A stretch of 45,168 nt of DNA from Candidatus Roizmanbacteria bacterium (GCA_037441985.1 JBBIRE010000001.1:1-45168), one strand, 5' to 3'. Numbered from the stretch's first letter, positions 10,372-39,462 are shown. Notes: a model not told the origin generated them from the letters alone. Program-made: numbers and translations.

Positions 10372-11958
10372 TTACTTTATTTCTCTTATCCAAAAAACCG
10401 GATTATTTTTATAGAAAATTTTAATTGATCCTTCTTCGGGAATTTCCAGCGGTCTACCAATAACTGCAATATTTCTTTCATTATTTGAATAATTAAGATT
10501 AAAAACAAATTTGTCAAATTTTTCTATTTGCTGAAAGCCATAAATATCAAAATTTCCTAATTTTGCTTGTTGTTGAATTTTTTCTGGCGGATATTGTAAA
10601 TAGAAAAGAAGAAAAATATAGGGTGGTCCAGATTCTTTTGTAATGTAAAATTTGTTAAATTTTGAATAGTTTTTTCTAATATAATTGGTTAATTCTTGAT
10701 AACCACACTGCCACGCTTGTTGGTTAAGAAATTTTTTTTGGTATTGATTTAAATAATAATGCCACGTAAAAAGATTTGGAAATAACCAACCAGTAAAAAT
10801 TAATATTCCCATTAAATAACCAATTTTTCTATCTTTAATATTTTCTAAAAAGTTAATTATTCCGTAACTAGTAATGATGAAAATTGGGATAAAAATGGAA
10901 AAAGTTCGACTAACGGATAAACCCGCCCAACTTAGAGAGCCCGAAATAGGTGATATTAATAATAAAAGAACTAAAAAAAGTCGCCATTTTTCTTTATTTT
11001 TGAATAAATAATAAATACCAACAAAAAGAAAAATATATTCAATAAATGTAAGAGGAGAGAGATAAGGATCACCGAAGCGGCGATTGTTTTCATCACCAAT
11101 GATCATTAAAAATTGCGGAGAAAAATATTTAAAGTATTCGCTGATTGAAATTTTAATTCCAAGAGTTAATTTATTGTAAAAAATTTTTGAGTTGTTATCT
11201 TTTCTTAGTTCTTCAATTTGAGAAATGAATCCTGGATTGTTAAAAAAAAGAAGATTTTTTACTCGAGTCGGTTGATAAATAAAATCAGTTAAGGCAAAGA
11301 GAATTAAAACTATTGTTGTGTTTATTAAAAAACGGAGTGGTAATTTTTTTTTAATAAGAGTGAAATAAAAAATAATCACTATAAAGAATAAAGCGAAAAT
11401 TCTAGCTGAATGATAAGAGAATAAAGAAAGTAGGAGTAAAATTAAAAAGGCGATTTCAAACTTTAATTTTTTAGTTTCAAGATTTTTTATTAAAAATAAA
11501 CTACTTAAGGTAATTAAAAAACTAGTCAAAAGAGCCTCATGGAGTTGTCTTGAAAAGGCGTGGATGAGCCAGGAGGCGCTAAAGAGGAAAATTGTTAAGA
11601 TGGCAATTGAGTTTTTTTTAAAAATAGTTTTTGTAAGAAAAAAAAGAGTAAAAGTAAACAAAACTAAAATCAAACTATTTAATAACTTAATCGAGATTTT
11701 ATTAAGGCCAAACAAAGCAATAAAAGGAATATTAAGATAAGACAAAAGAGGCATTTTGTAATCTCCAAAAGAGATTAAGCGAAGAGGCAAAAAATTACCA
11801 AATTCATCTTTGCCGGTTTTTAGTAAAGAGTAGCTATTATAGGAAAAAGCGACTTCATCAGCGTTAATACAAGGTGGAACATCACTTAGTTTATAGAAAT
11901 GAAAAAACAAATTTATAGTGATAATGAATAAAATGAGTACCAAAATTTTTTTATTCAT
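10372..11958 (-). CDS. GT-C fold membrane glycosyltransferase, ArnT/PMT_2-like (family A paralog 3)
   Basis: Polytopic membrane protein. After the first TM helix comes an acidic loop motif (INADEVAFSYNSYSLL), as in ArnT/PMT-type polyprenyl-phosphate-sugar transferases. Has a C-terminal soluble domain. Confidence 0.75.
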   Translation of the reverse strand: MNKKILVLILFIITINLFFHFYKLSDVPPCINADEVAFSYNSYSLLKTGKDEFGNFLPLRLISFGDYKMPLLSYLNIPFIALFGLNKISIKLLNSLILVLFTFTLFFLTKTIFKKNSIAILTIFLFSASWLIHAFSRQLHEALLTSFLITLSSLFLIKNLETKKLKFEIAFLILLLLSLFSYHSARIFALFFIVIIFYFTLIKKKLPLRFLINTTIVLILFALTDFIYQPTRVKNLLFFNNPGFISQIEELRKDNNSKIFYNKLTLGIKISISEYFKYFSPQFLMIIGDENNRRFGDPYLSPLTFIEYIFLFVGIYYLFKNKEKWRLFLVLLLLISPISGSLSWAGLSVSRTFSIFIPIFIITSYGIINFLENIKDRKIGYLMGILIFTGWLFPNLFTWHYYLNQYQKKFLNQQAWQCGYQELTNYIRKNYSKFNKFYITKESGPPYIFLLFYLQYPPEKIQQQAKLGNFDIYGFQQIEKFDKFVFNLNYSNNERNIAVIGRPLEIPEEGSIKIFYKNNPVFWIREIK

Positions 11959-12853
11959 ATTGAAATAATTTTAATATTTGATTGTCTTTAAGTTGGAATT
12001 GTTTCTTGTTAACACCTCTTTTTTTAATTATTGTCTTTATTTTAAATAAAGACAAGGCTAATCCTTTTAGAAATTCAAATTTTCTTTTGATGATAAAATA
12101 AACGATCCAATACGGTAACCATAATAAAGTAAAAAAAAGATAACTAATATCTAAATTTTTAAAAATAAAAATAAGTTGATTCTTAAAAGCTGTCGTTTCA
12201 ATAAATTTTGGCTGATGATATTTTCTAATTGTTGTTCCATGGAAATGATAAACTTCCGTTGATGGATCAAAAATGATTTCAAAACCAGATTTCCAGCCTC
12301 GATAAGAAAGATCGATATCTTCCCAATAAAAAGGCGAATAAAGATCATCAAAACCTGAGAGAAATAAAAACTTTTTTTTATCAAAAATAGCCGCTCCGCC
12401 TTCTGCCCAAGCATTGATTCCAGGGTTAATATTTTTTGCTTTTCGATGGAGGATCAAACCTTCTTTAAAATAAATAACGTTTTTTCCTATAATTTCTCCG
12501 CTTTTTTCAATTTGAGCAAAGGCGATAGCAAATAGCTTTGGATTTATACGAAACCTTTTAGTTAAATTTTCAAAATTGATATTTTTTATCACCACATCGG
12601 AATTTAACAATAAAACATAGGGATTTTTTGCTTTTTTAACACCGAGATTAACAGATTTAGCAAAACCTAAATTTTTTTTGTTTTCAATAAGGATAATTTT
12701 TTTATCAATTAAAACAAGATCTTTTTTTATTAATTCTTGAGGATTATCATTAACAATAATGATTTCTTTGTCTTTCAAAAAATTAAGGTTTTTTCTAAAA
12801 TTATTTAAAAATTCCTCTTTATTTTTATAAACAGGAATGACGATTGAGATCAT
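11951..12853 (-). CDS. Glycosyltransferase family 2
   Basis: N-terminus ISIVIPVYKN, then IIIVNDN, LLLNSDV and a WEDIDLSYR-type motif typical of GT2 (GT-A fold). Confidence 0.85.
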   Translation of the reverse strand: MISIVIPVYKNKEEFLNNFRKNLNFLKDKEIIIVNDNPQELIKKDLVLIDKKIILIENKKNLGFAKSVNLGVKKAKNPYVLLLNSDVVIKNINFENLTKRFRINPKLFAIAFAQIEKSGEIIGKNVIYFKEGLILHRKAKNINPGINAWAEGGAAIFDKKKFLFLSGFDDLYSPFYWEDIDLSYRGWKSGFEIIFDPSTEVYHFHGTTIRKYHQPKFIETTAFKNQLIFIFKNLDISYLFFTLLWLPYWIVYFIIKRKFEFLKGLALSLFKIKTIIKKRGVNKKQFQLKDNQILKLFQYE

Positions 12854-13965
12854 ATTACATTAATAATTGAACGAACAACTTTATCTTTAAAAATTTGATA
12901 AGAATAATTTTTTTTAACAAAATCTTTTCCGTTTTTAATAATTTCTTGATAAACTTTGGGATTGGTTTCAATTTCGTTGATTTTTTCAAAAAACTCCTCT
13001 TCATTTTTAAAAAGAATTCCATTTTTCTTGTCAGCAATTAGTTCCTTCATTCTACCTCCTTGATAGGCAATCACACAGCAACCAGAAGCCATTGCTTCTA
13101 AGGGAGCAATACCAAAATGTTCGACTTTTTCCGGGTGTTTTTCGTCATCTGTTGCAAACCCGGTAAAATGCCAATAATATTTTGTCTTTTGATAAAGATT
13201 AAGAATTTCTTGAAAAGAAATATTGGTTTTTAAAACAATTGACGGATCATTATTGGCGATTTTTATCAAAAAATCAAAATAATTTTTGTCTTCTTCTTTT
13301 ATTCTGCCTGCTAAAATTAGTTTATAATCTTTGAACAATCCATTATTACGTTTAATTTTTTTAAACATTTGAATAATTAAATCTTGTTTTTTACTATGCA
13401 TATGAGGAAAAAAACGTCCTATTGATAAAATGATTTTATCTTTTTTAGTTAATGGTAAATTTATAAATTCATCTTCGATATATGGTTCGATAACTATTGA
13501 TGGAATTCCCCATTTTTTAAGAAATCTTTGAGTAAATTTTGAATTAGAAATTAGTTGATAGTTGTAGGTTTTTATTTTATTAACTATGTTTGTTGGATAA
13601 AGTCTTTTATCAGGGACCATGGCGAAAATAAAATTTTTCTTAGCTAAAGAGAAAAAATAACTCCCATTAGTAACATAAAAAAAATAATCAAAATTAAATG
13701 TTTTTTTTAGAATGTTGATTGTTGAAAAGGGAAATTTTTTATTTTTAAAAATATTTGGGAGAAAGACAATCGGTGGTTTAAAAGTCAAACCAAAAATTTT
13801 TTTTATTTTTTGATTAAGATTTTCATCCCAAAAAATATAGATTTTATTTCCCAACTCATTGAAAACTTTTAAGATTGAAAGAATATGCTTTTCTCCACCA
13901 CCCAAAACATCCAAATAAGGATTATAGAGAGCGACTTTCTTCTGATTGACAATATTTTTTTTCAT
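12850..13965 (-). CDS. Glycosyltransferase family 4 (Pfam Glycos_transf_1)
   Basis: C-terminal EHFGIAPLEAMASGCCVIAY (E-x7-E motif region). The ATG at 13965 (MKKNIVNQKKVALYNPY) is preferred to 14016, which lies deep inside the upstream gene. Confidence 0.85.
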   Translation of the reverse strand: MKKNIVNQKKVALYNPYLDVLGGGEKHILSILKVFNELGNKIYIFWDENLNQKIKKIFGLTFKPPIVFLPNIFKNKKFPFSTINILKKTFNFDYFFYVTNGSYFFSLAKKNFIFAMVPDKRLYPTNIVNKIKTYNYQLISNSKFTQRFLKKWGIPSIVIEPYIEDEFINLPLTKKDKIILSIGRFFPHMHSKKQDLIIQMFKKIKRNNGLFKDYKLILAGRIKEEDKNYFDFLIKIANNDPSIVLKTNISFQEILNLYQKTKYYWHFTGFATDDEKHPEKVEHFGIAPLEAMASGCCVIAYQGGRMKELIADKKNGILFKNEEEFFEKINEIETNPKVYQEIIKNGKDFVKKNYSYQIFKDKVVRSIINVI

Positions 13966-14704: not shown

Positions 14705-14711
14705 AATTTTA

Positions 14712-16139: not shown

Positions 16140-16215
16140 TCCTGATTTAATCGGGAATCTATAAATGAGATTCTCGCCTTCGTCCCGTCATGACGGGACT
16201 TCGCGGGAATGACAA
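16133..16215. repeat. GC-rich nested palindromic element in a divergent intergenic region
   Basis: Outer inverted repeat TTGTCATTCC (16133-16142) / GGAATGACAA (16206-16215). Perfect 18-bp palindrome GTCCCGTCATGACGGGAC (16182-16199). Imperfect 21-bp palindrome ATTCCTGATTTAATCGGGAAT (16138-16158). Confidence 0.7.
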
Positions 16216-16241
16216 ATAAAGTTCGAAACAGATTTAATAAA

Positions 16242-17207
16242 ATGAGCTCTAGAATTGTCAAAAAAAAACTGTTAATTTTAATCACTCTTTTTTTTACCGG
16301 CTTATTTCTTCGAGTTTATATTTCTAATCTAGGCTATAATTTTGATTTTGGTTTATGGCAGATTGTTGGCGACCTAGTTAGTCAAGGGAAAAATGTTTAT
16401 CGAGAGACGACTCGATATAGCTATGGATCAATATGGTTTTTAATTTTAGGTTTATTTAAAAAAATATCTTTATTCTTTGAAAACGATTATTTCGCTTTTC
16501 GATTTTTAGTTATCTTAACTCTTACGATCAGTAATTTTTTAATGAGTTTATTAGTTTATCGATTTTTTGGTTCTTTTGCCTTCTTTTTTATTTTTTTTAA
16601 TCCGATTTTAATTTATACTACTGGTTTTCATAATCAATTTGATACTTTAGCAATTTTTTTTGGTTTATTGGCTTTAATTACGATAGAGAAGAAACGAGAA
16701 AAGTTAGTTGGTTATTTGCTTCTTGGTTTATCACTAACAATTAAACATATTTTTCTTTTTTTTCCATTATGGTTGATAATTCGGACTAAAAACAAAAAGC
16801 AATTTCTTTACTCGCTAGTTCCTTATCTTGTTTTTATTTGTTCCTTTCTTCCATTTGTAAATTCTAAAGAAACCTATGTGGCAATTTTAAATAATGTTTT
16901 TTTAAACAAAAGAGATCTTTTATACCCATTTTTAAAAAATATTTCTTTAACAACGCCAATAATCATTTTTATTGTTTTATGGATTTTTGGATGGGTGTTT
17001 AAAAAGGAAAAAATTTTTCATTCGGGTCTTTACTATTTATTAATTTTTACCGGGAGTTTAGTTAACAGTGGAGTTTTATATTTATCAATTCCTCTGATTG
17101 GATTTTTATTTTTTCCCTTGCTGGGGCTTTTTTATACTCTGGTGGCGGCATTTTATCTTTATTTTCATGTCTTTAACCTTAAATTTAATTCTTATTATTT
17201 GTTTTAA
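16242..17207 (+). CDS. GT-C-like membrane protein, DUF2029/GT87 (PimE-like) type
   Basis: Multi-TM protein. GKNVYRETTRYSYGSIWFL and later LSLTIKHIFLFF resemble the DUF2029 pattern. The ATG at 16242 (MSSRIVKKK + TM) is preferred to 16209, which lies inside the palindromic element. Confidence 0.6.
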   Translation: MSSRIVKKKLLILITLFFTGLFLRVYISNLGYNFDFGLWQIVGDLVSQGKNVYRETTRYSYGSIWFLILGLFKKISLFFENDYFAFRFLVILTLTISNFLMSLLVYRFFGSFAFFFIFFNPILIYTTGFHNQFDTLAIFFGLLALITIEKKREKLVGYLLLGLSLTIKHIFLFFPLWLIIRTKNKKQFLYSLVPYLVFICSFLPFVNSKETYVAILNNVFLNKRDLLYPFLKNISLTTPIIIFIVLWIFGWVFKKEKIFHSGLYYLLIFTGSLVNSGVLYLSIPLIGFLFFPLLGLFYTLVAAFYLYFHVFNLKFNSYYLF

Positions 17208-17238
17208 TTTATGTTGGTTAATAATTGTCACTAAAAAG

Positions 17239-17934
17239 ATGGGTTTTTTAAGTAAGTTAATTAATAGATTAATTTCTTTTTTGTTAGTTGTGGGTTTAGT
17301 TTTTAGTTTTAAATTTTTTATTAAATATACCAAAGAATATTTTTTTTATTTTAAAAATAATTTTTACTTTTTAACAATCTATAAATCTCCATTAAAATTA
17401 TTTAAAAAGGAAAATTTTGAAACCTCTTTTGATAGAAATAAAACAATTATTGGCAATTCGATTATAAAGGAAAACAATTTGGGCTTAATTTATATTCCTT
17501 ATTTTTTAGACAATCAACCTGAAGATTTTTTCGAAAAGAATTATCAGATTGAAGTTAAATTCTTTATAAACGATCGTTTATATCATAAAGAAAAGCGACC
17601 AATTGGTAATGGGTTGACTGAAAACGGAATCATTTTTGGAATGCCGGTATTAAAAGAGGGGAAAAACAAAAATTATAAAATTGTTCTCAAAAACAATCTT
17701 CCCACAAACCAAAAATACTTTTATTTAGGAAAACATCTTCCTTATCAAGAAATTTATTTCATTGAAAAAAAACAGTTGTTATCATTTAATTTTTTTATTA
17801 ATTTTGTCAAATATAAGATTTGGTTTTCATTTTACGATAAAAAAAGCGTTAGTTATTTAATGATTTTATATTTTTATTTGTGGTTGATTATTTTTTTAAT
17901 AATTAAAAAGAGTAATAAAAAGATAAACAAATAA
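17239..17934 (+). CDS. Hypothetical membrane protein anchored at both ends
   Basis: ATG at 17239 (MGFLSKLINRLISFLLVVGLVFSF). N-terminal TM, a non-hydrophobic domain of about 150 aa, and a C-terminal TM (YLMILYFYLWLIIFLII). No motif recognised. Confidence 0.55.
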   Translation: MGFLSKLINRLISFLLVVGLVFSFKFFIKYTKEYFFYFKNNFYFLTIYKSPLKLFKKENFETSFDRNKTIIGNSIIKENNLGLIYIPYFLDNQPEDFFEKNYQIEVKFFINDRLYHKEKRPIGNGLTENGIIFGMPVLKEGKNKNYKIVLKNNLPTNQKYFYLGKHLPYQEIYFIEKKQLLSFNFFINFVKYKIWFSFYDKKSVSYLMILYFYLWLIIFLIIKKSNKKINK

Positions 17935-19031
17935 TGATAATCTTATATTTAAGTTATTTTCTAACGATCTTTTTCTTAATTTTTTACAGTTATTTTCTTG
18001 TTGATCCGAACTTTACCTTTTTTAACCATTCGTTGTGGACAGGCTTTCGAAATTTTGTTGTCAATATCGGTTATTATCAAAGAGAGCTTTCTTGGTGGAT
18101 TTATTTTATTTTAGTTTTATTATTGTTTTTCTTTCATTTTTTGCTAATCAAAAATCATAAAAAAATTAATTTAAGAATCATTGTTTTAGTATTAGGTTTA
18201 TTAACTCTTTTTAGTCATCCATTTTTATCACATGACTTTTTTAATTATCTTTTTGATGCTCGGATTTTTACTTATTACGGGAAAAATCCATATTTATATA
18301 AGGCATTGGATTTTCCATCCGATCCCTGGTTACGGTTTATGCATTGGACTCACCGGACTTATCCTTATGGGCCGATTTTTTTAATCATTAGTTTTTTCCC
18401 TTCTTTTTTCAGCTTTGGCAAGTTGATTCTTAATTTTTTTCTTTTTAAACTTGTCTGGATAATATTTTTTACCCTTTCAATTTACTTCCTTAATAAACTA
18501 AATAAAAAGTGGGCGCTATTTTTCGCGACTCATCCTTTGATTATTGTTGAAGGTTTGATTAATGCTCACAACGATTTAATTGCTTTATCGTTGGCTCTTT
18601 TTGGTTTTTATTTGTTGGCAAAAGAAAAAAAAATTTTTTATAGAGTTTTATTTTTATTATCAGCCGGAATTAAATACTTAACAGTCCCTTTAATTTTTCT
18701 TTCTAAAAAAAACAAAAAGGTTAATTATTTAATTTTTGGACTTTTAATCGCTGCTATTTTTCTTGTTTCCTTTATTGGCGAGATCCAGCCATGGTATTTC
18801 CTTTCTTTGTTTGTTTTTTTGCCAATTTTCCCAAAGCTAATAGAAAAATTGAATATTTTTTTTGCTGGTTTATTATTTTCTTATTATCCTTACATTCGAC
18901 TTGGTGGCTGGGATTCGATAGAAAAGATTAATCTTAAACATCAGATTATTTTGGTAGGATTTTTACTTAATATTTTTTATTTAATTGGGGTAAAATTAAA
19001 GAGAAATGAAACTATTTATAAAAAAAATTGA
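17934..19031 (+). CDS. GT-C-like membrane protein, DUF2029/MptB-like
   Basis: SHDFFNYLFDARIFTYYGKNPY...YPYGPIF, then NAHNDLIALSLALFG and SAGIKYLTVP. This resembles the mycobacterial-type polyprenyl-P-mannose transferase family pattern. The start overlaps the previous stop (TAATG). Confidence 0.6.
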   Translation: MIILYLSYFLTIFFLIFYSYFLVDPNFTFFNHSLWTGFRNFVVNIGYYQRELSWWIYFILVLLLFFFHFLLIKNHKKINLRIIVLVLGLLTLFSHPFLSHDFFNYLFDARIFTYYGKNPYLYKALDFPSDPWLRFMHWTHRTYPYGPIFLIISFFPSFFSFGKLILNFFLFKLVWIIFFTLSIYFLNKLNKKWALFFATHPLIIVEGLINAHNDLIALSLALFGFYLLAKEKKIFYRVLFLLSAGIKYLTVPLIFLSKKNKKVNYLIFGLLIAAIFLVSFIGEIQPWYFLSLFVFLPIFPKLIEKLNIFFAGLLFSYYPYIRLGGWDSIEKINLKHQIILVGFLLNIFYLIGVKLKRNETIYKKN

Positions 19032-20640
19032 GTGGTTGATTATTTTAGGAAGTCTTTTTGCTTTTATTTTTAATAGTCTTTATGTTTCTTATCCTGATGA
19101 ATTTGTCAATCTTTTAGGAGGAAGAAGTATCTTAAATGGCAGGATTCCGTACAAAGATTTTTTTGACCACCATCTTCCTTTTGCTTGGTATCTTTCATCA
19201 ATTTTTTTATTATTTACTCAAAATTCATATGTTTTGTTTCGCTTATTGTGGTCGATTTTTAGTTTTTTCCTCCTTTTTATTTTAGGACAGAATATTAAAA
19301 AAAACCGAAAAAATTTTTATCTTTATTACCTTCTTTTTTTAACTTTATATCCAATAACCGCTCTTTATTTTTGGTTTCATCTATATTTAGCTGACAGTTT
19401 AGCGGTTTTATTTTTCTCGCTCATCTTTTGGTTGTTGTTGGTTGAAACTTTTTCTGAAAAATCAAATTTCAAAATCCAAATTTTAAGTTCATTTCTTACT
19501 TTTTGTTTAATTTTTTCTTCAATGACGTTTGTTTATTTAGCGCTTTTCCTTTATCTCTGGCAGTTTTATTTAGTGATCAGTCATCATAAAAAACAAAGCT
19601 TGAAATTCATTTTTTTCTCCTCAATTCCTTATCTTGTTTATCTCACTTATCTAATTATCACCAATTCTTGGTGGGATTTTTATTTTGCCAATTTCTATTA
19701 CAATACGAAGTTATATATTTCGATTCCTAATTACGTTCGCGGGCGGTTTTTTAATCCTTTAAAATTTGCTTTCACTTTAATTGATAATTTTTATCAGGGA
19801 TATCTTCCTCTTTTATCCAAAATCAAACATCTTGATTTATATTTACCTATTGATACCCTATCGGCATTAGGAAGTTTGAGTTTATTACTAATTCTTTTTT
19901 CCAAAAATCCTCTTCTGGGAATTTTTTATTTTTTTATTTTGTCTTTTTCTGCTCCAAGAAGTAATATTGGTCAATATCGGGAAACAGATTATCAAAGCTC
20001 AATGTTTTTTGTTTTGGGAATCATTTCTTCTCTTTTTTCATTTTATTGGTTAAAAGGATATTCTTTTAAAGAAAAGATCTTTGATGATTTAAAAAGAATT
20101 GTTCACTCGATTTTAACAATTTTTTTAATCTTTAGTTTAATTTTTCTCTTGGGTAATTTTTATCATAAATTTTTTATGGTTTATACTCAACAGATGCCCC
20201 GAATTCACAATCAATGGAATGTCTATTTGTTCTTAAAAGAAATACTTAGCGATAATGATCGTTTTTGGATTGGTCCATATGAACCTAATTTTCAATTCTT
20301 TAGTCGTGAATTAACCACTAATTGGAAATATCCAACCCTATTGCCTCAGTTTCGGGAAAACGATTATTTAAAAAAAGATTTTCTTTATCAGTTTGAAAAA
20401 AACAAGCCAACAGTAATTATTTTTAAACACGAAGCTTCTATCTTTATGACGCCTGCAAATCAATTCGGCCAGTTTTTTTTAGAGTGGTTAAAGAAAGATT
20501 ATCTTAATCTGGAAGAAATTAAAAACATTCAGATTCTTCGGTCACCATCAGAGTTTAATCTAAAAACTGATTTTTATTTTCTTAAAAGCGAAAAGGAAAG
20601 GATTTTAAACAATTTAAGAACTAAAGGTTTTCTTCAATAA
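19006..20640 (+). CDS. GT-C-like polytopic membrane protein with C-terminal soluble domain
   Basis: Acidic loop after TM1 (YPDEFVNLLGGRSILNGRIPYKDFFDHH), more than 10 predicted TM segments, and a soluble tail of about 130 aa. Confidence 0.55.
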   Translation: MKLFIKKIEWLIILGSLFAFIFNSLYVSYPDEFVNLLGGRSILNGRIPYKDFFDHHLPFAWYLSSIFLLFTQNSYVLFRLLWSIFSFFLLFILGQNIKKNRKNFYLYYLLFLTLYPITALYFWFHLYLADSLAVLFFSLIFWLLLVETFSEKSNFKIQILSSFLTFCLIFSSMTFVYLALFLYLWQFYLVISHHKKQSLKFIFFSSIPYLVYLTYLIITNSWWDFYFANFYYNTKLYISIPNYVRGRFFNPLKFAFTLIDNFYQGYLPLLSKIKHLDLYLPIDTLSALGSLSLLLILFSKNPLLGIFYFFILSFSAPRSNIGQYRETDYQSSMFFVLGIISSLFSFYWLKGYSFKEKIFDDLKRIVHSILTIFLIFSLIFLLGNFYHKFFMVYTQQMPRIHNQWNVYLFLKEILSDNDRFWIGPYEPNFQFFSRELTTNWKYPTLLPQFRENDYLKKDFLYQFEKNKPTVIIFKHEASIFMTPANQFGQFFLEWLKKDYLNLEEIKNIQILRSPSEFNLKTDFYFLKSEKERILNNLRTKGFLQ

Positions 20641-22882: not shown

Positions 22883-22911
22883 TATTGATTGTTGATATAT
22901 AATACTTACGT

Positions 22912-24636
22912 ATGAATCTGAAAAAGTCGATTCTTTGGCAATTATTAATAGTTATTATTATAACAATTCCTTCTTTTTTGAGCCTTATTAATTCACGTTA
23001 CTTTACAATTCACGACAATCAACATGTTGTTCGTTTATATTTATTAGATCGAGGGATCAGGCAAGGATATCTTTTTCCTCGCTGGATTGATGAGTTAACC
23101 TTTGGATTTGGCGACCCTCTTTTTAATTTTTATCCACCTTTAGTTTATTATTTAGGCGAGTTTTTTCATTTATTGGGTTTTTCTTATATTTGGTCGATAA
23201 AGTTGGTTTTTATTTTTGGTTTTTTAATTGGTTCAATTTCAATTTATCTTTTGATAAAAGAATTTTTAGGAAAGCTGGCGGCTTTTTTGGGAACAACGAT
23301 CTTTACTTATTTTTTTTATCATGCGGTCAATGCTTATGTCCGAGGAGCTTTATCAGAATTTTTTGCCATGAATTTAGTGCCTTTGGTTTTTTTATCGATA
23401 ACAAAAACAGCTAAAAGTCCGTCAATTAAAAACAGTTTATTTTTTTCTTTTTCATTGACTTTGGTTTTTCTCAGTCATCAATTAGTGGTTTTGCCTTTAT
23501 TATTTTTTCTTCCTTTTTATTTCCTTTTTTCTTTATTTATTGACGGAAAGAAAAAAAAAGAATTTATTATTTTTTTAATGATTGGGGGAATTCTTGGTAT
23601 GGGTTTATCAGCTTTTTATTGGCTGCCAATGTTTTACGAAAAACAATTTACGTTTTTAGATAAAGAACTAGGGAGTTATAAAGATCATTATCTTTATCCT
23701 TATCAATTTTGGTATTCTCCATGGGGGTTTGGCGCGTCAGTTAAAGGAATTGTTGATGGAATGAGTTTTCAGTTAGGGAAAATTCCTATTTTGCTAATTA
23801 CTGTTTCGATATTAACTTTTTTTGTTTTTCAATTCAAAAAATTAACTAAAAAAGATGAATTCGTTGTCAATCAATTTATTTTCTTTTTATTTTTAATGAT
23901 TTTTGGTTTGTGGATGACGACATTTTATTCTTCATTTATTTGGGATAAAGTAAAACTTTTATGGAGCCTTCAGTTTCCTTGGCGATTTTTATCAATAACT
24001 GCCACTTTTGTTGCAATAATTGCTAGTTATTGGATTTATTTTCTTCAAAGAGTATTTTTCCAAAAAAATGAATTTATTGTTAAGTTATTAGTCAGTATTT
24101 TTATTGTTTTAACCATTTATAAATATTATCCTTATTTTCGACCACAAAGTTATCTTAAAGTTACCGACAAAGATTTAATCACAAAAGAAGAAATCCAATG
24201 GATTCAAAGTAAGACAGTTTTGCATTTTGTCCCAAAAGGAGTAAAAGCCAAAAAAAATGAATATGGAGTTTATATCTTAGATATCGATAAAAAAGATTTA
24301 CCAAAAAATATCTATCAAATAAAAAAAGGCGATGGCGAGGTTAAGACAATCAAAAATAAATATCAGGAAAAAGAATTTTTAGTCAAAGCCAAAACACCAC
24401 TTCAATTTCAGCTCAATACTTTTAATTTTGTTGGCTGGCAGGCATACTTAGATGGAAGAAGAGTTAGCATTGATGATAATAACGATTTTAAATTAATTAA
24501 CGTTAAGATTTCTTTAGGAGAACATCAATTGAAATTTGTTTTTAAAAATACTTTGGTTCGGACAATAGGCGGATATCTTTCTTTTATCAGTTTAATAATG
24601 TGTTTATGGATCATAGTAAGAAAAAGAACAGTCTAG
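22912..24636 (+). CDS. GT-C-like membrane protein, PTPS-related (PF10131-like) family
   Basis: YFTIHDNQHVVRLYLLDRGIRQGYLFPRWIDELTFGFGDPLFNFYPPLVYYL matches my memory of the membrane 'PTPS-related' family signature. Polytopic, with a C-terminal beta-rich domain. Confidence 0.6.
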   Translation: MNLKKSILWQLLIVIIITIPSFLSLINSRYFTIHDNQHVVRLYLLDRGIRQGYLFPRWIDELTFGFGDPLFNFYPPLVYYLGEFFHLLGFSYIWSIKLVFIFGFLIGSISIYLLIKEFLGKLAAFLGTTIFTYFFYHAVNAYVRGALSEFFAMNLVPLVFLSITKTAKSPSIKNSLFFSFSLTLVFLSHQLVVLPLLFFLPFYFLFSLFIDGKKKKEFIIFLMIGGILGMGLSAFYWLPMFYEKQFTFLDKELGSYKDHYLYPYQFWYSPWGFGASVKGIVDGMSFQLGKIPILLITVSILTFFVFQFKKLTKKDEFVVNQFIFFLFLMIFGLWMTTFYSSFIWDKVKLLWSLQFPWRFLSITATFVAIIASYWIYFLQRVFFQKNEFIVKLLVSIFIVLTIYKYYPYFRPQSYLKVTDKDLITKEEIQWIQSKTVLHFVPKGVKAKKNEYGVYILDIDKKDLPKNIYQIKKGDGEVKTIKNKYQEKEFLVKAKTPLQFQLNTFNFVGWQAYLDGRRVSIDDNNDFKLINVKISLGEHQLKFVFKNTLVRTIGGYLSFISLIMCLWIIVRKRTV

Positions 24637-25247
24637 TTTATTTTTATCCGCTGATAATTTTTATCTTCTTTGTTAATTTTCATTTCTATGATTTTTATCA
24701 AAAAAATTTTCTTTCGATGCTAAAGATTATTTCAAAAAGAAAAGAAAAAACTCTATACGAAAAAATTCAAAGTCAGAATCATTACTATGAAGTTTGGCGT
24801 TTAGCGAATCTAAAAAAAAATGTCATTTTTGTTAATGAAGATAAAAGTAGCCAGTTTATTGATTATGTTTCGACATATTTTCTAAATAAAAATAAGCCAC
24901 AAGATAAAAAAATAACTTATTATTTAACAGAATTGAATTTAATGACAAAGTATTTTTTCTATCCAAAAATTGTTCCAGTCTATTCCTTTTACCAAATTAT
25001 TTTTTCACCTCCATTAATTAAAAAAGGGATATATATCATCTCCGATTACGAATTTGAATCATTTTATAAAAATAAATTTTCAGAAAATAAATGTTTATGT
25101 GAAAAATCAATTGAGAAAATAAATATCGAAAAAAACTTTCTAAGTTTTTATCAAAGATTAAAAAGGATTGAGATTTCCAATAAAGATTATGTTTCAGTAA
25201 TCCGTCGACCAGAAAAAACTTATTATCTTTACGAAGTTATTAAATAG
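24606..25247 (+). CDS. Hypothetical N-terminally anchored protein
   Basis: ATG at 24606. A single N-terminal TM (LVYFYPLIIFIFFVNF) and a domain of about 180 aa ending TYYLYEVIK, like the C-terminal tails of the GT-C paralogs. Confidence 0.5.
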   Translation: MDHSKKKNSLVYFYPLIIFIFFVNFHFYDFYQKNFLSMLKIISKRKEKTLYEKIQSQNHYYEVWRLANLKKNVIFVNEDKSSQFIDYVSTYFLNKNKPQDKKITYYLTELNLMTKYFFYPKIVPVYSFYQIIFSPPLIKKGIYIISDYEFESFYKNKFSENKCLCEKSIEKINIEKNFLSFYQRLKRIEISNKDYVSVIRRPEKTYYLYEVIK

Positions 25248-25251
25248 ACTT

Positions 25252-26670
25252 ATGATTGAAAAAAGTTTTTTTACAATCTTTCTTTGTATTTTTTTCTTTT
25301 ACTTTTTAGGTGATATCTTTTTCCGACTTTTTTTAAATAATTTAATGAAAAAAGTAAATTTACTTATTCGTTTATCATCTCTTTGGATTATTGGCAATAG
25401 CATTTTTTCTATCTTTTTAATGTTTATGTTTTTGATTAGGAGACTTGATTGGATTAATTTTTCAAATTTTTTGCATCTTTTTCTTTTTATAATTTTTGTT
25501 TGGATTTATCTTTCGATTAAACAAAAAAGATTTACTAATTTTTCTTTTCATTATTTTATTTATTTAATTTTAATTTTTCTTTTTTTTCTTCCCTTAATTC
25601 TCAATAGTTTGACTAGCTTTCTTATTGAATGGGATGCGGTGGCGATTTGGTTTTTCAAAGCAAAGGCACTTTTTTTAGAAAAAAATTTTTTAAGTTATCT
25701 AAAAGATAACAATTGGTTATTTTCCAGTCAAGCTTATCCAATTGGCGTTCCTTTGGTTATTTCTTTTTATTATCGATTGATTAACAAGATTAATGACCAA
25801 TCAATTCAATTATATTTTTTAATGTTTTATTTAAATTTAACTATTTTTAGTTTAGGCATTCTGATAGATTTTTTTGAGAAAAAGATTAATAAAATTATTT
25901 TACTTTTAGCAGTTTTATCTTTTTATATTAGTAGTAATATCGTTGTTTATTCTCATAATGGATATGTAGATCTTGTATTGGGCTCAGTTTTTGCATTTAT
26001 TTTTTATTTTCTTTATTTATTTCTTAATGGACGAGAAAGCAAATTAAAAAGCGATTTATTGAAAATGATCCTTATTGTCTCGGGTCATTCATTGATCTTA
26101 AAAAATGAAGCCATTCCTTTTGTTCTAATTGTTTTTTTGGCATTGATAATCAATTTTTTTATCAATTTAGAAAAAACTAATAGAAAAAAAATTATTTATT
26201 TTATTCCTTACGTTATTATTTTTTTCTTTCCTTTTATTTTTTGGCAGGTTTACCTTAAAGTTTACAAAATCCCCTCTTTTTTAGATGGTCACTATTTAGA
26301 TTTTATAAAAATAGAGAATTTAGTAAGATTGAAAACGATTTTTAATTATTGTTTTTTAGAAATATTTAATACTAATAAATACAATTTGAGTTTTATTCTG
26401 TTAATTTTATTATTTGTTTATCAAATGTCATACTTGATTTTGAGTCAAGAATTAAGTTTAAAAATTAACCTATTAATTTTTCTTCTTTTTGGCCAGTTCT
26501 TGAGCTACGTTTATGTATATTTAGTGACTCCTTTACCATTTATTGTTCAGTTGGAAACATCTTTAGAGAGATTAATTCTTCAGATATTGCCAATTTTTTT
26601 TATTTTAAACAGTATTTTATTAAATGAAATATTGAGCAGGCAAAGAAAGGATAAAAAAAGGCCAATATGA
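25252..26670 (+). CDS. Polytopic membrane protein, probable GT-C-type glycosyltransferase
   Basis: More than 10 TM segments. The loop EWDAVAIWFFKAKALFLEKNF...SQAYPIGVPL resembles GT-C periplasmic-loop motifs. No other family was recognised. Confidence 0.45.
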   Translation: MIEKSFFTIFLCIFFFYFLGDIFFRLFLNNLMKKVNLLIRLSSLWIIGNSIFSIFLMFMFLIRRLDWINFSNFLHLFLFIIFVWIYLSIKQKRFTNFSFHYFIYLILIFLFFLPLILNSLTSFLIEWDAVAIWFFKAKALFLEKNFLSYLKDNNWLFSSQAYPIGVPLVISFYYRLINKINDQSIQLYFLMFYLNLTIFSLGILIDFFEKKINKIILLLAVLSFYISSNIVVYSHNGYVDLVLGSVFAFIFYFLYLFLNGRESKLKSDLLKMILIVSGHSLILKNEAIPFVLIVFLALIINFFINLEKTNRKKIIYFIPYVIIFFFPFIFWQVYLKVYKIPSFLDGHYLDFIKIENLVRLKTIFNYCFLEIFNTNKYNLSFILLILLFVYQMSYLILSQELSLKINLLIFLLFGQFLSYVYVYLVTPLPFIVQLETSLERLILQILPIFFILNSILLNEILSRQRKDKKRPI

Positions 26671-27685: not shown

Positions 27686-27694
27686 TTTTATTAA

Positions 27695-29233: not shown

Positions 29234-29236
29234 CTC

Positions 29237-30748: not shown

Positions 30749-30751
30749 AAA

Positions 30752-34923: not shown

Positions 34924-36388
34924 GGACGATTTTATAAATTTTAACACGATCGACTAGCCAAATTTTTTTGATTTTTTTATTTGAAAAAGCAGCAATTTGC
35001 CATTGAGGGTGATTCAAGACATCACAATTTTTTTCATAGCATAAAACATAAAGCTCATTTCCTTCAATTGAAGACTCTTCACTAAGCGGTTTTTTTCCGT
35101 AAATTTCTAAATAATAACGAATATGACCATCCATTTCAGTAAATGGAATGGGTACGATTTGATAAGGGGGTTTGGGATTTTCTTTGATGATCGATTGAGC
35201 AATTTTTTTGGCAATTTTAGTCTGGAAATTACCTTGTTTTTGATAAAAAGGATATTTTTTGTATTGAAGGAAGAAAAAATAAATTAAAAAAAGAAAAACA
35301 AAAATTTTATTTAAAAAATTTTTCCGAAAAAGGAAGGAAAGAATGACCGAAAGTATAAGAAAAAAACTTAAATAGATTGTTTGATAGTAATGCCAAAAGC
35401 GAAAGCTATTTAACGAGCTAAAGATAAAAATAAAGGAAAAAAAATTAAGCCAATTAATTTGGATAAAAGGATGGTTTTTTAATTTTTTTGGGAAGAAGAA
35501 AAAGACGATTAAAAAGAAAAAAAGAATAAGAGCAATTAAAAAATGACTTAACTGAATATTAAAAACATAATTGAAAAAATTAGTCATTGTTTCCCAAAAT
35601 CGATTGAGAAAAGAACCACCATAAGTTTCTTTGACTTGAGTAAAGGCTTTAATAAAATTTTTACTATTCAAGAATTTATTTTTTATATCAAAAAAAACAA
35701 GGGGTAAATTAAAAAGAAATAATCCTCCAATAAAAGAAAAAAGATCGATCAACAAATTTTTAAAAGACCTTTCTTTTAAAATCTTTTTCAAGTTAAAAAT
35801 AGTAGAAATAAATAATGGGAAGATTAACAATAATCCTAAATAATGGAGTTGAGTTGATAGGGCAAAAAAAACTCCTGTTAAAAAGACAAATAACCTTTTT
35901 TTTGTTAAGATAAAATGAGAAAAAAAATAAAGAGTAAAAAAGGCAAAATACGGCAGAAGATTGGGATTCCAAGAGAAGCGCGATGAGTAAACAAGAATTG
36001 AAGAGAAGGTGGCTAAAAATAAAAAGATATGAGCGAGAGTTTTATCGATTTTTCTAAGAAGGAAAAAGAATATGATTAAAGAAACGATTGATAAAAATCC
36101 AACACCAAACCCTAGACCGACAGGATTAAACTTAAAAAGAAATAAAAATGGGCTCATAAGATAATAGTAAAAAGGACCTAAAAAAACTTGACCAATCGAA
36201 GATACTGGACCTATTGCTGGTAAATGCTCTAAAGTAATAATTCGTTTAATGATAATCGCGTCTCTTCCTTGATCGCCTAAAAAAGTTAAAAATTCCTCCA
36301 AGCGGTAAAAACGGGTAAAGGTAAGAATCAAAATGAAAATCGCCAACATCTTATTTTTTGCTAAAATATTGAGTATGCGACGGGTCAT
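34913..36388 (-). CDS. GT-C-like polytopic membrane protein (family B paralog 1)
   Basis: FTRFYRLEEFLTFLGDQGRDAIIIKRI..LPAIGPV, FSWNPNL and QLHYLG blocks. Confidence 0.7.
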   Translation of the reverse strand: MTRRILNILAKNKMLAIFILILTFTRFYRLEEFLTFLGDQGRDAIIIKRIITLEHLPAIGPVSSIGQVFLGPFYYYLMSPFLFLFKFNPVGLGFGVGFLSIVSLIIFFFLLRKIDKTLAHIFLFLATFSSILVYSSRFSWNPNLLPYFAFFTLYFFSHFILTKKRLFVFLTGVFFALSTQLHYLGLLLIFPLFISTIFNLKKILKERSFKNLLIDLFSFIGGLFLFNLPLVFFDIKNKFLNSKNFIKAFTQVKETYGGSFLNRFWETMTNFFNYVFNIQLSHFLIALILFFFLIVFFFFPKKLKNHPFIQINWLNFFSFIFIFSSLNSFRFWHYYQTIYLSFFLILSVILSFLFRKNFLNKIFVFLFLIYFFFLQYKKYPFYQKQGNFQTKIAKKIAQSIIKENPKPPYQIVPIPFTEMDGHIRYYLEIYGKKPLSEESSIEGNELYVLCYEKNCDVLNHPQWQIAAFSNKKIKKIWLVDRVKIYKIVHGK

Positions 36389-37499
36389 ATTACCATATTT
36401 TACTTTAACCGCAGTTGTTTTTCTAACGACTTTGATTGTTTGGCTGCCTTTTTTATTGCGTCAAAATTATTGGTTTGGACTTAAGATTCCTAGTTCAGAT
36501 ATGAGTTATATTTATAAGAATTTTGATGGACCGCTTTATATCGTCCCGGCAAAAACTTTTTATCATCCAAAAGCGATATCGAATTTAGGAATAGAATTAC
36601 CCTTACCAGAAATTTATTTTACCGCTCATTTGCCCTTTTATCCCTTTTTAATTCGCGCTTTTTCACCAATTTTTGGTTATCTAAAATCAATGATTTCTGT
36701 CAATTTATTAGCGACTGTTTTTTTAACCTGTTTTTTTTATTTTTTTCTTAAAAAATTTAAAATAACGAAATATCCATTAATCCTAAGCATTATTCTTTTA
36801 TTTACACCAAAATTTTTAGTGGTGCGAAGTATTGGCGCGCCAGAAAGTTTGTTTATATTATTTATTCTTTTATCGCTTTTTTTCTTTGAACAAAAAAGGT
36901 TTTTCTGGTCAGGATTGTTTGGCGGATTGGCAACAATGACTAAATCGCCGGGAATCTTGCTTTTTTTTGCTTATACTCTTTCGATTATAGAAAATTATTG
37001 GAAAACAAAAAAAATTAATTGGCAGTGGTTGGGAATATTGTTAATACCTTTAGGTTTATTGGCAGTTTTTAGTTTATATTGGTATCAATACGGTGATTTT
37101 TTTGCTTATTTTCACTCAGGTGATAACCTTCATCTTTATGGTCTGTTTAGTGTTTTTAATTTTCGTGCCAATTGGATTGGTACTGCTTGGTTAGAAGATA
37201 TTATTCTTTATTTTTTTCTTTATGGTTTGACAGTTATTTATTTATTTCGATTACCCAACAGAAGCTTTTTTTATTATTCCCTGATTTATTTCTTAGCAAT
37301 CATTAGCGTCCAACATCGTGATATTCCTCGATATAGTCTTCCTCTTTGGCCAATGGCATTGATTGCATTTGAAAAATTTTTTACTAGCAAAAAATTTTTA
37401 ATAGTTTTTCTTTTTTTGCTCCCCGGGATCTATTTATTTGCTTGGAATTTTATCATCTATAACATAATGCCAGTCTCTAATTGGTTGCCTTATCTTTGA
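36375..37499 (+). CDS. GT-C-like membrane protein, PIG-V/Mannosyl_trans2-like
   Basis: FDGPLYIVPAKTFY...FTAHLPFYPFLIRAF resembles the WD..Y..IA..GY / AFFPLYP pattern of PIG-V-type mannosyltransferases. The ATG at 36375 (MRRVILPYF + TM) is preferred to 36333. Confidence 0.55.
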   Translation: MRRVILPYFTLTAVVFLTTLIVWLPFLLRQNYWFGLKIPSSDMSYIYKNFDGPLYIVPAKTFYHPKAISNLGIELPLPEIYFTAHLPFYPFLIRAFSPIFGYLKSMISVNLLATVFLTCFFYFFLKKFKITKYPLILSIILLFTPKFLVVRSIGAPESLFILFILLSLFFFEQKRFFWSGLFGGLATMTKSPGILLFFAYTLSIIENYWKTKKINWQWLGILLIPLGLLAVFSLYWYQYGDFFAYFHSGDNLHLYGLFSVFNFRANWIGTAWLEDIILYFFLYGLTVIYLFRLPNRSFFYYSLIYFLAIISVQHRDIPRYSLPLWPMALIAFEKFFTSKKFLIVFLFLLPGIYLFAWNFIIYNIMPVSNWLPYL

Positions 37500-37505
37500 T
37501 TTATT

Positions 37506-38345: not shown

Positions 38346-39462
38346 ACTTTCTATTCATTACTTGATTAACAAATTTTAAAATATTTTTCGTAAAATTATG
38401 ACAACTAAATTTCTCAGCGGTTTTTCTTGCATTTTTTTTCATCAATAATAATTGTTGAATATCCATTTTTTCATAAACTTTTATTGTTTCAATTAATGCC
38501 TCAGGGTTGAGAGAGTTAAATAAAAAACCATTAGTTTTATCTTTTAAATATTCAGGGATACCTCCAGATCTAAAGGCAATTACTGGCAATCCATAGCCCA
38601 TGGCTTCAACTGGGGCAATTCCAAATTCCTCATCAACCGAGGCAAAAAGAAAGGCTTTTGCTTCTTGATAAAGTTTTGCCAACTTTGCGTCAGAAACATG
38701 ATTTAAAAATTCAATATTTTTATCAGCAATTGATTTAAGATATTTTTCATCTCGTCCTATTCCCACGATTTTTAGATTAAATTTAGCCAATTTAGCCGCT
38801 TCAATTAACAGATCGAGATGTTTTGCTTTGGCAAGACGAGAGACAGTGAGATAATAATTTTCACCGTTAGTTTTATAAGAAATTTTTTTAGGAATGTTAA
38901 CTGGAGGATAGATGACGGTTGCCTCTCGTCGATAAAACTTTTTAATTCTTTTTTTAGTCTCATACGAGTTAGCGATCAGATAGTCTGGTCTTTGACTGGA
39001 ATAAAAATCCCAGATTCTTAAAAAATGATTAACCAGGTAAGCATAGATTTTAACTGGAAGATACCTTTTCCATTCAATAGCGGTTTCATATCCGTAAAGA
39101 TATCTTGGTGGATGATGAAGATAGGCGATGTGAATAGTTGGTTTTTTTACCTTAATACCTTTTGACATCCATGAACCAGAAGAAGAAATAACAAGATCGT
39201 ATTTTGAAAAATCAAAACTTTCCCAAATAAAGGGAGTAAGAAATCGGAAAGGAGAATAGTAATTTTTAACTAAAGGAATTCTTCCAAACCAAGAAGAATA
39301 TATGCGCCAATTTTTTAAATAGTTTTTTTTATCTTTTAGTTTTTTTGGATTATAGACGGTAGTATAAATATCGGCTAAGGGAAAGATTTTTTTCAGTTCG
39401 ATTAAGACTCTTTCGGCGCCCCCAAATTCAATTAATTGATCATGAACAAGGGCAACTTTCAT
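38323..39462 (-). CDS. Glycosyltransferase family 4 (Pfam Glycos_transf_1)
   Basis: MKVALVHDQLIEFGGAERV N-terminus and EEFGIAPVEAMGYGLPVIAF motif. Confidence 0.85.
   Translation of the reverse strand: MKVALVHDQLIEFGGAERVLIELKKIFPLADIYTTVYNPKKLKDKKNYLKNWRIYSSWFGRIPLVKNYYSPFRFLTPFIWESFDFSKYDLVISSSGSWMSKGIKVKKPTIHIAYLHHPPRYLYGYETAIEWKRYLPVKIYAYLVNHFLRIWDFYSSQRPDYLIANSYETKKRIKKFYRREATVIYPPVNIPKKISYKTNGENYYLTVSRLAKAKHLDLLIEAAKLAKFNLKIVGIGRDEKYLKSIADKNIEFLNHVSDAKLAKLYQEAKAFLFASVDEEFGIAPVEAMGYGLPVIAFRSGGIPEYLKDKTNGFLFNSLNPEALIETIKVYEKMDIQQLLLMKKNARKTAEKFSCHNFTKNILKFVNQVMNRKYARITRS

Follow-up and report, generated by a model that had tools for sequence, protein, structure and literature searches.

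Gene content of the locus

Positions 10,372–39,462 of a 45,168-nt stretch of DNA from a Candidatus Roizmanbacteria bacterium (JBBIRE010000001.1; hereafter the window, by which we mean the whole stretch) hold a 29.1-kb locus rich in genes for candidate membrane-bound glycosyltransferases of the GT-C type. Open reading frames (ORFs), labelled g01–g26 by their order along the locus, cover 98.7 per cent of it, and about 19.9 kb encode polytopic proteins. An earlier note on this DNA had counted 25 genes; there are 24, as g06 and g07 represent one gene, and one of the 24 encodes a DNA glycosylase. The note's other tallies stand: five GT2 genes, two GT4 genes and one Wzx-type flippase gene were all matched by Pfam, and its 14 GT-C-type membrane genes are backed by Pfam families (PMT_2, GT87 and PTPS_related), the MptA and MptB models, Pfam matches of orthologues, paralogy, and AlphaFold models searched with Foldseek.

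All 14 polytopic genes other than the flippase gene are classified as GT-C type, each on independent evidence from sequence or predicted structure. Every intact candidate shows 6–16 peaks in a hydropathy scan. Direct Pfam matches were obtained for g06 (GT87), g12 (PTPS_related and PMT_2), g17, g18, g20 and g21 (PMT_2), and g24 (PMT_2 and GT87). The proteins g09 and g14, the two for which the GT-C fold was examined by structure model, belong to curated families only transitively, via homologues. Transporters or other non-GT-C folds are not indicated for either: major facilitator superfamily (MFS), ATP-binding cassette (ABC) and G-protein-coupled receptor folds reached a Foldseek probability of at most 0.14. 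Acidic motifs follow the first transmembrane segment (TM1) in g01 (NADE and KDE), g09 (YPDE), g18 (TDE), g21 (WDE) and g16 (NEE), and further ones occur in g17 (GDMARD), g23 (GDQGRD), g05 (WDQE) and g08 (D24 and HDFFNY); their location in the first extracytoplasmic loop is predicted. We infer that the GT-C enzymes draw on polyprenyl-phosphate-linked sugar donors.

Matches to PMT_2 (PF13231) place g17 (29233–27695, minus strand; 512 aa; E-value 2e-9), g18 (30748–29237, minus; 503 aa; 2e-9), g20 (32757–31489, minus; 422 aa; 3e-6) and g21 (34168–32741, minus; 475 aa; 5e-12), the last of which also has a weak match to the ArnT model. The protein encoded by g01 (11958–10372, minus; 528 aa) has weak matches of its own and is assigned as PMT/PMT_2-type through its orthologues, 17 of 20 of which match PF13231 (best E-value 1e-14) and 11 of 20 PF02366; the residues D34, D51 and E52, which follow TM1, do not vary, and the C terminus forms an extracytoplasmic domain. 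The product of g12 (22912–24636, plus; 574 aa) matches PTPS_related (PF10131, 2e-10) as well as PMT_2. For g24 (36333–37499, plus; 374–388 aa), which is highly conserved (more than 2000 homologues, the top 120 at 58–92 per cent identity), PF13231 scores 28.4 bits and the AZOBR_p60025 family has an E-value of 9e-11. No Pfam PIG-V match was found for the earlier note's PIG-V-like gene. It probably corresponds to g24, and the JGI name of g24 homologues is 'Gpi18-like mannosyltransferase'.

Four genes, g05 (16139–14712, minus; 475 aa), g17, g20 and g23 (36388–34913, minus; 491 aa), are paralogs, which had been taken for a second family sharing GDxxRD...IGP, FWNPN and HY blocks. The blocks are real, but looser than described: IGP and H[YF] occur in all four proteins and WNP in three; two have GDxxRD in its exact form and one has FWNPN. 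Since PMT_2 is matched by three of them (g23 with 25.7 bits, 0.4 below the cut-off of 26.1), we class the four as a subfamily of PMT_2, not as a family of their own. The remaining member, g05, has no Pfam match, carries IGP, WNP and HF blocks, and has BLASTP E-values of 2e-18 to 7e-7 to g23, g20 and g17 (2e-18 to g23).

The 365-aa product of g08 (17934–19031, plus) is assigned to the MptA/MptB family on NCBIfam and precomputed PF26314 matches. It matches TIGR03459 (2.3e-9) and the MptB model (2e-4), with scores (36.7 bits against an equivalog cut-off of 439.4 for MptA; 20 against 40 for MptB) that indicate family-level similarity only; its orthologues carry the precomputed PF26314 (MptA_B_family) match, and GT87 (PF09594) was found by local Pfam search in only one of 23 of them. 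Profiles of the g01, g08 and g09 families matched nothing among PDB sequences at E-values up to 1. Permissive scans of the unassigned proteins (Pfam E-value ≤10, NCBIfam E-value ≤1) returned nothing for g05, g07, g09, g14 and g16, and only sub-threshold Pfam matches, taken as chance, for g13 and g15 (0.06–1.3).

We used g09 (19006–20640, plus; 544 aa), which is the best conserved gene of the locus and a member of a candidate GT-C family that has no Pfam model, as the anchor for retrieving related loci. The YPDE motif is invariant directly after TM1, and the protein ends in an alpha/beta domain. Its homologues number more than 270; among the 120 best ones listed, at 47–91 per cent identity, none has a Pfam match or a functional name, and the few that are named, several of them from Candidatus Roizmanbacteria, are called 'hypothetical protein'. 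An exhaustive profile search extends the family to 745 representative clusters at 50 per cent identity. The alignment-based AlphaFold (AF2) model is a helical bundle with a predicted local distance difference test score (pLDDT) of 92 and a predicted template modelling (TM) score of 0.92. Its top 15 Foldseek matches in the PDB are all GT-C enzymes (AglB, STT3, PglB, ArnT, DPY19, AftA, ALG3, AftB and Pmt1), with probabilities of 0.5–1.0 that reach at least 0.9 in 11 of the 15 and are lowest for AftB (0.69 and 0.51) and DPY19 (0.77 and 0.85), and MFS transporters rank beneath them at a probability of about 0.05. AglB is the best match, and ArnT gives the highest TM-score (0.47).

Distant relatives of g09 add links to characterized families. 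Some, about 680 aa long, have a GtrA_DPMS_TM domain at the N terminus (2e-26 and 3e-22), and another member exceeds the PMT_2 cut-off within the region aligned with g09. In Patescibacteria KatS3mg091 (locus L045, 9872–14119) and KatS3mg090 (L046), a g09 homologue forms a compact unit with a UDP-Glc/GDP-Man dehydrogenase gene and a gene for a GT2 fused to GtrA_DPMS_TM, an arrangement that hints at transfer of a uronic acid, with a polyprenyl-phosphate donor, by some of the family. The GtrA fusions and this neighbouring GT2 of the dolichyl-phosphate-mannose synthase (DPMS) type tie the g09 family to polyprenyl-phosphate-monosaccharide donors. Taken together, the structural matches, the YPDE motif, the GtrA and PMT_2 links and the gene neighbours suggest that g09 is a GT-C enzyme using such a donor. 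We considered whether g09 could instead be an oligosaccharyltransferase acting en bloc and rejected it: neither g09 nor its 120 listed homologues have an STT3 (PF02516) Pfam match, the neighbours suggest monosaccharide donors, and the structural likeness is at the superfamily level. The WWDYG motif was not noticed in the family consensus, although no search was aimed at it.

The GT-C-fold protein g14 (25252–26670, plus; 472 aa) was likewise modelled as a helical bundle (AF2; pLDDT 86), which Foldseek matched to ALG12, ALG9, Pmt4, Pmt1/2 and AftA at probabilities of 0.9–0.99. One of its homologues, P0138 (35 per cent identity), is annotated as GT39 and carries PF13231. The gene is preceded by g13 (24600–25247, plus), which encodes a 215-aa protein with a single transmembrane segment and no family match. 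A g13 homologue always lies immediately upstream of the g14 homologue in the related loci (L001, L011 and L056–L059), and g13 may be a partner or an acceptor-binding subunit of g14.

Two of the 14 genes are disrupted. The GT87-like gene made up of g06 and g07 (16209–17934, plus; about 570 aa; GT87 score 28.3 bits) is split into two overlapping ORFs by a 1-nt insertion near position 17,181, where the window has AAA and locus L001 has AA. The intact 568-aa orthologue of L001, which itself matches GT87, is 89 and 81 per cent identical to the two halves. The extra A may reflect a true frameshift or a mistake in the assembly. The other, g15/g16 (27685–26755, minus), is the polytopic gene that the earlier note had described as unassigned and decayed. 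Intact homologues of 387 and 395 aa, which match PF13231 at about 4e-7, align with it in two frames (tblastn), identifying it as a probable remnant of a PMT_2 gene of about 390 aa, with a frameshift near 27,280 and an in-frame stop at 26,932.

The GT2 and GT4 proteins comprise g02 (12853–11951, minus; GT2, 300 aa; PF00535, 5e-16), g03 (14016–12850, minus; GT4, 388 aa; PF00534, 3e-28), g04 (14704–13922, minus; GT2, 260 aa, without a transmembrane segment; PF00535, 3e-13), g10 (21465–20614, minus; a rhamnosyltransferase-like GT2 of 283 aa; PF00535, and TIGR01556 at 3e-15), g19 (31492–30752, minus; GT2, 246 aa; PF00535, 3e-27), g22 (34947–34165, minus; GT2, 260 aa; PF00535, 9e-22) and g26 (39462–38323, minus; GT4, 379 aa; PF00534, 5e-32). 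Among these, g04 is weakly AglJ/PpgS-like (NCBIfam AglJ, 1.5e-7), and the GT4 proteins g03 and g26 have generic PDB matches, with no PimA or PimB at E-values up to 1e-4.

The earlier note had singled out two GT2 genes as polyprenyl-phosphate-sugar synthase-like, and g19 and g22 are indeed closest to DPMS, GtrB and ArnC. The best PDB match of both is the Pyrococcus dolichyl-phosphate-mannose (Dol-P-Man) synthase 5mlz (g19, 3.5e-14, with ArnC and GtrB lower; g22, 1.9e-13, followed by GtrB at 3e-9 and ArnC). NCBIfam matches, all below the equivalog cut-offs, are to Dol-P-hexose transferase, PpgS and AglJ for g19, and to PgfS (the best, 4e-15) and ArnC for g22. Both are predicted to be polyprenyl-phosphate-sugar synthases. 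The hydropathy scan found no hydrophobic segments in either protein, and neither a C-terminal membrane anchor nor a GtrA_DPMS_TM domain is present. Each gene is flanked by PMT_2 genes (g18-g19-g20 and g21-g22-g23). With the Wzx-type flippase g11 (22882–21437, minus; 481 aa; PF13440, Polysacc_synt_3, 3e-46; PF01943, 1e-16), the locus thus encodes all three components of transmembrane glycosylation together.

Of the classical polysaccharide-assembly set (Wzx/Wzy), the flippase is the sole component found in the ORFs scanned. No phosphoglycosyltransferase (PGT), Wzy, Wzz, O-antigen ligase, nucleotide-sugar enzyme or lipid A family was matched by Pfam in the ORFs of the locus or the scanned ORFs of its right flank, where PF00953, PF02397, Wzy_C and EpsG also went unmatched; the earlier note had recognized none of these functions either. 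UbiA and DprE genes and Emb/Aft-type Pfam matches were likewise not found in the ORFs of the locus.

Setting, conservation and turnover

The gene order in the window is rpoB, rpoC, rpsL, rpsG, fusA, the locus, uppP, three tRNA genes, a DUF2905 gene, a gene for a single-TM protein, and genes for a D-Ala-D-Ala carboxypeptidase and a class II aminoacyl-tRNA synthetase. The left neighbour encodes elongation factor G (8e-267); the names rpoB to rpsG follow from ORF order and size, these ORFs lying outside the Pfam scan. The guanine-cytosine (GC) content is about 0.23–0.30 in the locus versus 0.31–0.35 outside it (left flank). On the right, uppP (bacA; 39482–40273, plus; PF02673, 2e-63), for undecaprenyl-diphosphate phosphatase, directly adjoins the locus, as had been noted, and is divergent from g26. 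Between g24 and g26 lies g25 (38345–37506, minus; PF06831 and PF01149), which encodes an Fpg/MutM DNA glycosylase that, from its family, is unrelated to glycans; it shares 23 nt with the upstream g26, in the same orientation.

Directly after uppP are tRNA-Arg(CCG), tRNA-Ala(CGC) and tRNA-Ile(UAU), at 40284–40436 and 40942–41016 (plus). The UAU anticodon is uncommon in bacteria, where AUA is usually read by a modified CAU tRNA. As ORF 40902–41213 overlaps tRNA-Ile, the real start of the DUF2905 gene must lie downstream of that tRNA. The single-TM protein (41343–42389, plus; 348 aa) has no Pfam match; a 359-aa ORF, also without a Pfam match, occupies the equivalent site beside the D-Ala-D-Ala carboxypeptidase gene in locus L062 and is a possible counterpart.

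We scanned one genome per Genome Taxonomy Database (GTDB) species and found 55 loci with a g09 relative; related loci from other genomes are numbered L001–L062. All g09-relative loci with informative titles belong to Roizmanbacteria, Microgenomates or Patescibacteria. Many records from L002 to L054 are titled 'uncultured Gammaproteobacteria bacterium' (third-party-annotation assemblies), evidently a placeholder or mislabel. The recurrent order is g01-g02-g03-g04-(g05)-g08-g09-g10-g11-g12 ... g18-(g19-g20)-g21-g22-g23-(g24), and the core order is kept in the 55 loci, from about 50 Roizmanbacteria species. All 28 loci that span the full 21.5 kb contain g09; g08 and g11 each occur in 26 of them, g03, g04 and g10 each in 25, g18 in 22, g02 in 21 and g01 in 19, and g12 has orthologues of at least 35 per cent identity in 13 and more distant copies elsewhere. 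These loci have a median of nine polytopic ORFs, Wzx not counted, per 21.5 kb.

The surroundings vary. Most relatives have dnaG-rpoD-CAAX protease, not fusA, on the left; the idea of a PGT gene hidden upstream was rejected on this ground. The right end (g24, Fpg, GT4 and BacA) is kept in three further Roizmanbacteria genomes (L060–L062), with the g26–uppP adjacency conserved. In two of these three, a YknX/ABC/MacB module follows g24; in L060 (11167–14055) this YknX/ABC/MacB-FtsX transporter module, absent from the window, lies between g24 and fpg. Insertions within the cluster of L058 (4655–5787 and 11440–13209) encode an APH-family kinase with a HAD phosphatase, and a GmrSD-type restriction enzyme; L013 has an inositol-monophosphatase-family gene (12608–13465) within its cluster.

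Turnover of GT-C genes is apparent even at short distance. A relative at 77–90 per cent nucleotide identity has three gene-scale indels with respect to the window, namely an extra 484-aa PMT_2 gene, a 567-aa PMT_2 gene in place of the pseudogene, and an extra 683-aa ORF. Conserved core synteny combined with gene-scale GT-C flux indicates that the locus is inherited vertically, with a stable core and a fast-changing GT-C set. The earlier note's term 'island' does not suit a lineage-wide, vertically inherited locus. As for a mobile island, no integrase or transposase family was found in the scanned ORFs of the locus or its right flank, core synteny is lineage-wide, and the lower GC content fits AT-rich genes for membrane proteins; we rejected this origin. 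Contigs of 1.22 and 1.23 Mb in relatives point to a genome of about 1.2 Mb, in keeping with the approximately 1 Mb guessed earlier, and to a share of about 2.4 per cent for the locus. This share, together with conservation in about 50 species, argues for an important surface structure; the conservation also lends weight to the proposal that the locus is central to the biology of the organism.

A candidate system for outer-face glycan assembly

We interpret the locus as a lineage-wide cell-envelope glycan locus of Candidatus Roizmanbacteria, a member of the candidate phyla radiation (CPR; Patescibacteria), that encodes a greatly expanded transmembrane glycosylation system of several components, and we put the probability of this reading at roughly 0.65. 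The cluster's product is probably a variable coat of sugars on the cell membrane's outer face. The soluble GT2 and GT4 enzymes g02, g03, g04, g10 and g26 would assemble a lipid-linked precursor on the cytoplasmic face, while g19 and g22, of the DPMS/GtrB/ArnC type, would load single sugars onto polyprenyl phosphate. By analogy with GacK, the Wzx-type g11 would flip lipid-linked intermediates outward, possibly acting as a flippase for polyprenyl-phosphate-monosaccharides. Approximately 13 GT-C enzymes would then add sugars singly from polyprenyl-phosphate-sugars to at least one envelope acceptor, and UppP would recycle the released polyprenyl diphosphate. The sugars could end up on a protein, on a polysaccharide anchored in the wall or to a lipid, or on both. 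In this scheme a common structure would come from the conserved core (g01–g04, g08–g12, g18 and g21–g24), and linkages particular to a species or strain from the variable paralogs g05, g06/g07, g14, g15/g16, g17 and g20. Enzyme classes, synteny and gene flux were observed; the donors, the order of the steps, the role of Wzx and the acceptor are our proposals.

Several points weigh against this interpretation. The donors, acceptors and individual enzyme activities are all predicted from sequence. The window encodes no initiating PGT and no LCP-type or other ligase, which leaves the start of the precursor and the destination of the product unexplained, and the locus contains neither a GtrA-type flippase (no PF04138 match in any of its ORFs) nor an identified GacJ-like membrane partner for the GT2 enzymes. 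About 13 GT-C enzymes would have to share two or three polyprenyl-phosphate-sugar synthases. The structural evidence has limits as well: the Foldseek E-values are only 6e-3 to 0.75 for g09 (TM-scores of 0.27–0.47) and weak (0.2) for g14 (TM-scores of 0.3–0.47), and profile alignments (hhalign) with the g01 family are not significant for g09 (probability 7 per cent) or g14 (4 per cent), the 53 per cent for g08 likewise providing no usable evidence of homology. It is unproven that the locus forms a single 'assembly line' making one product; the gene flux and the pseudogenes suggest a conserved core with variable decorating modules.

Such a line is the likeliest of the rival explanations. A glycolipid primed by GT4 enzymes and flipped across the membrane might be extended and branched by GT87, MptA/MptB-type and PMT_2 GT-C enzymes into one mannan-like polymer, with polyprenyl-phosphate-hexose as donor, as in mycobacterial lipoglycan synthesis. 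We regard this as possible but tentative. The MptA/MptB matches of g08 and the PF26314 matches of its orthologues speak for it, as do GT87 matches in g06/g07 and g24, the presence of two GT4 and two Ppm1/DPMS-like GT2 genes, and the inositol-monophosphatase-family gene of the L013 cluster; set against these are the g08 scores far short of the MptA and MptB cut-offs, GT4 matches that are generic and do not include PimA or PimB, and the missing Emb/Aft-type matches, UbiA and DprE. Rapid gain and loss of GT-C genes, moreover, suits modular decoration better than one fixed line. It seems doubtful that the GT-C enzymes instead attach O-glycans to proteins that are secreted or exposed on the surface (pilins, S-layer proteins or adhesins), using polyprenyl-phosphate-sugars, like actinobacterial Pmt or streptococcal Pgf, with g09 possibly resembling an oligosaccharyltransferase. 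Of 20 g01 orthologues, 11 match the protein O-mannosyltransferase model PF02366, PgfS is the best NCBIfam match of g22, AglJ matches occur in g04 and g19, and the oligosaccharyltransferases AglB, STT3 and PglB head the Foldseek matches of g09, which, however, has its highest TM-score to ArnT and relatives coupled to GtrA and DPMS-type GT2 proteins, that is, to monosaccharide donors. No STT3 or PglL/Wzy_C match was obtained in the Pfam-scanned ORFs of the locus and right flank, no MIR domain was found, the window offers no candidate acceptor protein, and PMT_2 is also the family of GT-C enzymes that glycosylate wall polymers (PMC8035078).

Far less probable than either is a classical Wzx/Wzy heteropolysaccharide locus, in which g09 or g14 would really be a Wzy or a ligase and the PGT would be encoded elsewhere. 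The core does hold Wzx and four or five soluble GT2/GT4 genes, and Wzy proteins are notoriously divergent, yet the g09 and g14 models match GT-C enzymes, with no WaaL, Wzy or SEDS protein among the 50 Foldseek matches listed for either, and g09 has the acidic GT-C motif after TM1 as well as transitive PMT_2 and GtrA links. Given also that Wzy_C, EpsG and Wzz are unmatched, a hidden Wzy or ligase in the locus is unlikely.

The transmembrane glycosylation reading can be carried further, into territory that we consider speculative and rather improbable. The main envelope glycoconjugate might be built almost wholly on the outer face by more than 10 GT-C enzymes, including the g09 family, from two or three polyprenyl-phosphate-sugar donors, and be primed without a classical PGT by an AglJ-like GT2 acting on polyprenyl monophosphate, which would make it a bacterial equivalent of the ALG pathway in the lumen and the Agl pathway of archaea. 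The fast-turnover GT-C paralogs would then set surface glycan types that govern host attachment or phage recognition in these presumed symbionts.

A large share of bacterial diversity, almost all of it uncultured, belongs to the CPR, whose small cells presumably live attached to hosts and whose envelope chemistry is essentially uncharted. The locus is a concrete target for glycan and glycoproteomic analysis and for heterologous reconstitution of GT2/GT-C pairs, and the g09 family, formerly 'hypothetical', can now be annotated as candidate GT-C. Turnover of GT-C paralogs between close relatives suggests diversification of surface glycans, comparable to O-antigen or teichoic-acid serotype variation, which could matter for host or phage specificity. 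In the literature on GT-C enzymes and cell envelopes of CPR, Patescibacteria, Roizmanbacteria and Microgenomates, we found no description of this locus, of a known product of its architecture, or of a GT-C expansion in CPR; related remarks are a passing speculation on phosphatidylinositol mannosides (PIM) in Saccharibacteria (PMC6031116) and a passing mention of multiple Dol-P-Man transferases in Peribacteria (PMC4736985).

Comparison with known systems

The earlier note saw the closest logic in mycobacterial lipoglycan and arabinogalactan assembly. The resemblance to the mycobacterial and corynebacterial pathways for PIM, lipomannan and lipoarabinomannan (PIM-LM-LAM) and for arabinogalactan (PimE of GT87, MptA/MptB/MptC, Ppm1 and Emb/Aft) extends to the use of many GT-C enzymes with few polyprenyl-phosphate-sugar donors and to the presence of GT87, MptA/B-type, GT4 and DPMS-like GT2 genes. 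It does not extend to the scores, which are far below equivalog cut-offs, or to a decaprenyl-phosphate-arabinose branch, Emb/Aft or a PimA signal; the genes, in addition, are clustered with Wzx, in an unrelated phylum and a minimal genome. Gac-type systems, discussed below, are at least as close.

The GT2 synthase plus GT-C logic is also that of the ArnC/ArnT and phage GtrA/GtrB/GtrC modification systems found in Gram-negative bacteria. The weak ArnT match of g21, the ArnC and GtrB matches of g19 and g22, and the fusion of g09 relatives to GtrA are consistent with this likeness, whereas the window has no lipid A or O-antigen genes and no ArnA, ArnB or ArnD, and GT-C genes are far more numerous. 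With the archaeal Agl pathway (AglJ/AglD, the Wzx-like flippase AglR, the GT-C enzyme AglS and the oligosaccharyltransferase AglB), the locus shares weak matches of g04 and g19 to AglJ and haloarchaeal Dol-P-hexose transferase and of g01, g20 and g23 to Agl23, a Wzx-like flippase, and the structural proximity of g09 to AglB. All of these matches are far below cut-offs, STT3 has no Pfam match, and the neighbours of g09 relatives suggest monosaccharide donors. Agl-like priming by a GT2 on polyprenyl monophosphate would, however, explain the missing PGT.

CPR organisms are thought to have a Gram-positive-like envelope with a single membrane and no outer membrane. Among the multi-component systems of Gram-positive bacteria are GtlA/GtcA/GtlB, CsbB/GtcA/YfhO and GacI/GacJ/GacK/GacL of Streptococcus pyogenes, in which a polyprenyl-phosphate-monosaccharide made by a GT2 enzyme of GT-A fold is moved by a flippase, after which a GT-C enzyme of PMT_2 or YfhO type transfers the sugar outside (PMC8035078). 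In GacI/GacK/GacL, a Wzx-type flippase and a GT-C enzyme work with a GT-A enzyme that has no membrane segments, and both GacI and eukaryotic-type DPM1, which lack such segments, require a membrane partner (PMC8035078). The locus resembles the Gac system in its GT-A enzymes without membrane segments, its Wzx-type flippase and its adjacent GT2 and GT-C genes. It differs from the Gram-positive systems in that no GtrA or GacJ homologue was detected in it, that the window has no acceptor-polymer genes (TagO/TarGH, rhamnan ABC transporter, LtaS or LCP), and that its candidate GT-C families include two, those of g09 and g14, without a Pfam model. It also differs in scale: the known systems have one GT-C enzyme per GT2, with one to three pairs per genome, whereas here, in a genome of about 1.2 Mb, a single 29-kb locus is predicted to hold about 13 GT-C genes and two or three synthase genes. 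Both the classes of enzyme and their logic have precedents; new are the scale, lineage and conserved architecture, together with a candidate GT-C family that lacks a Pfam model and a functional annotation.

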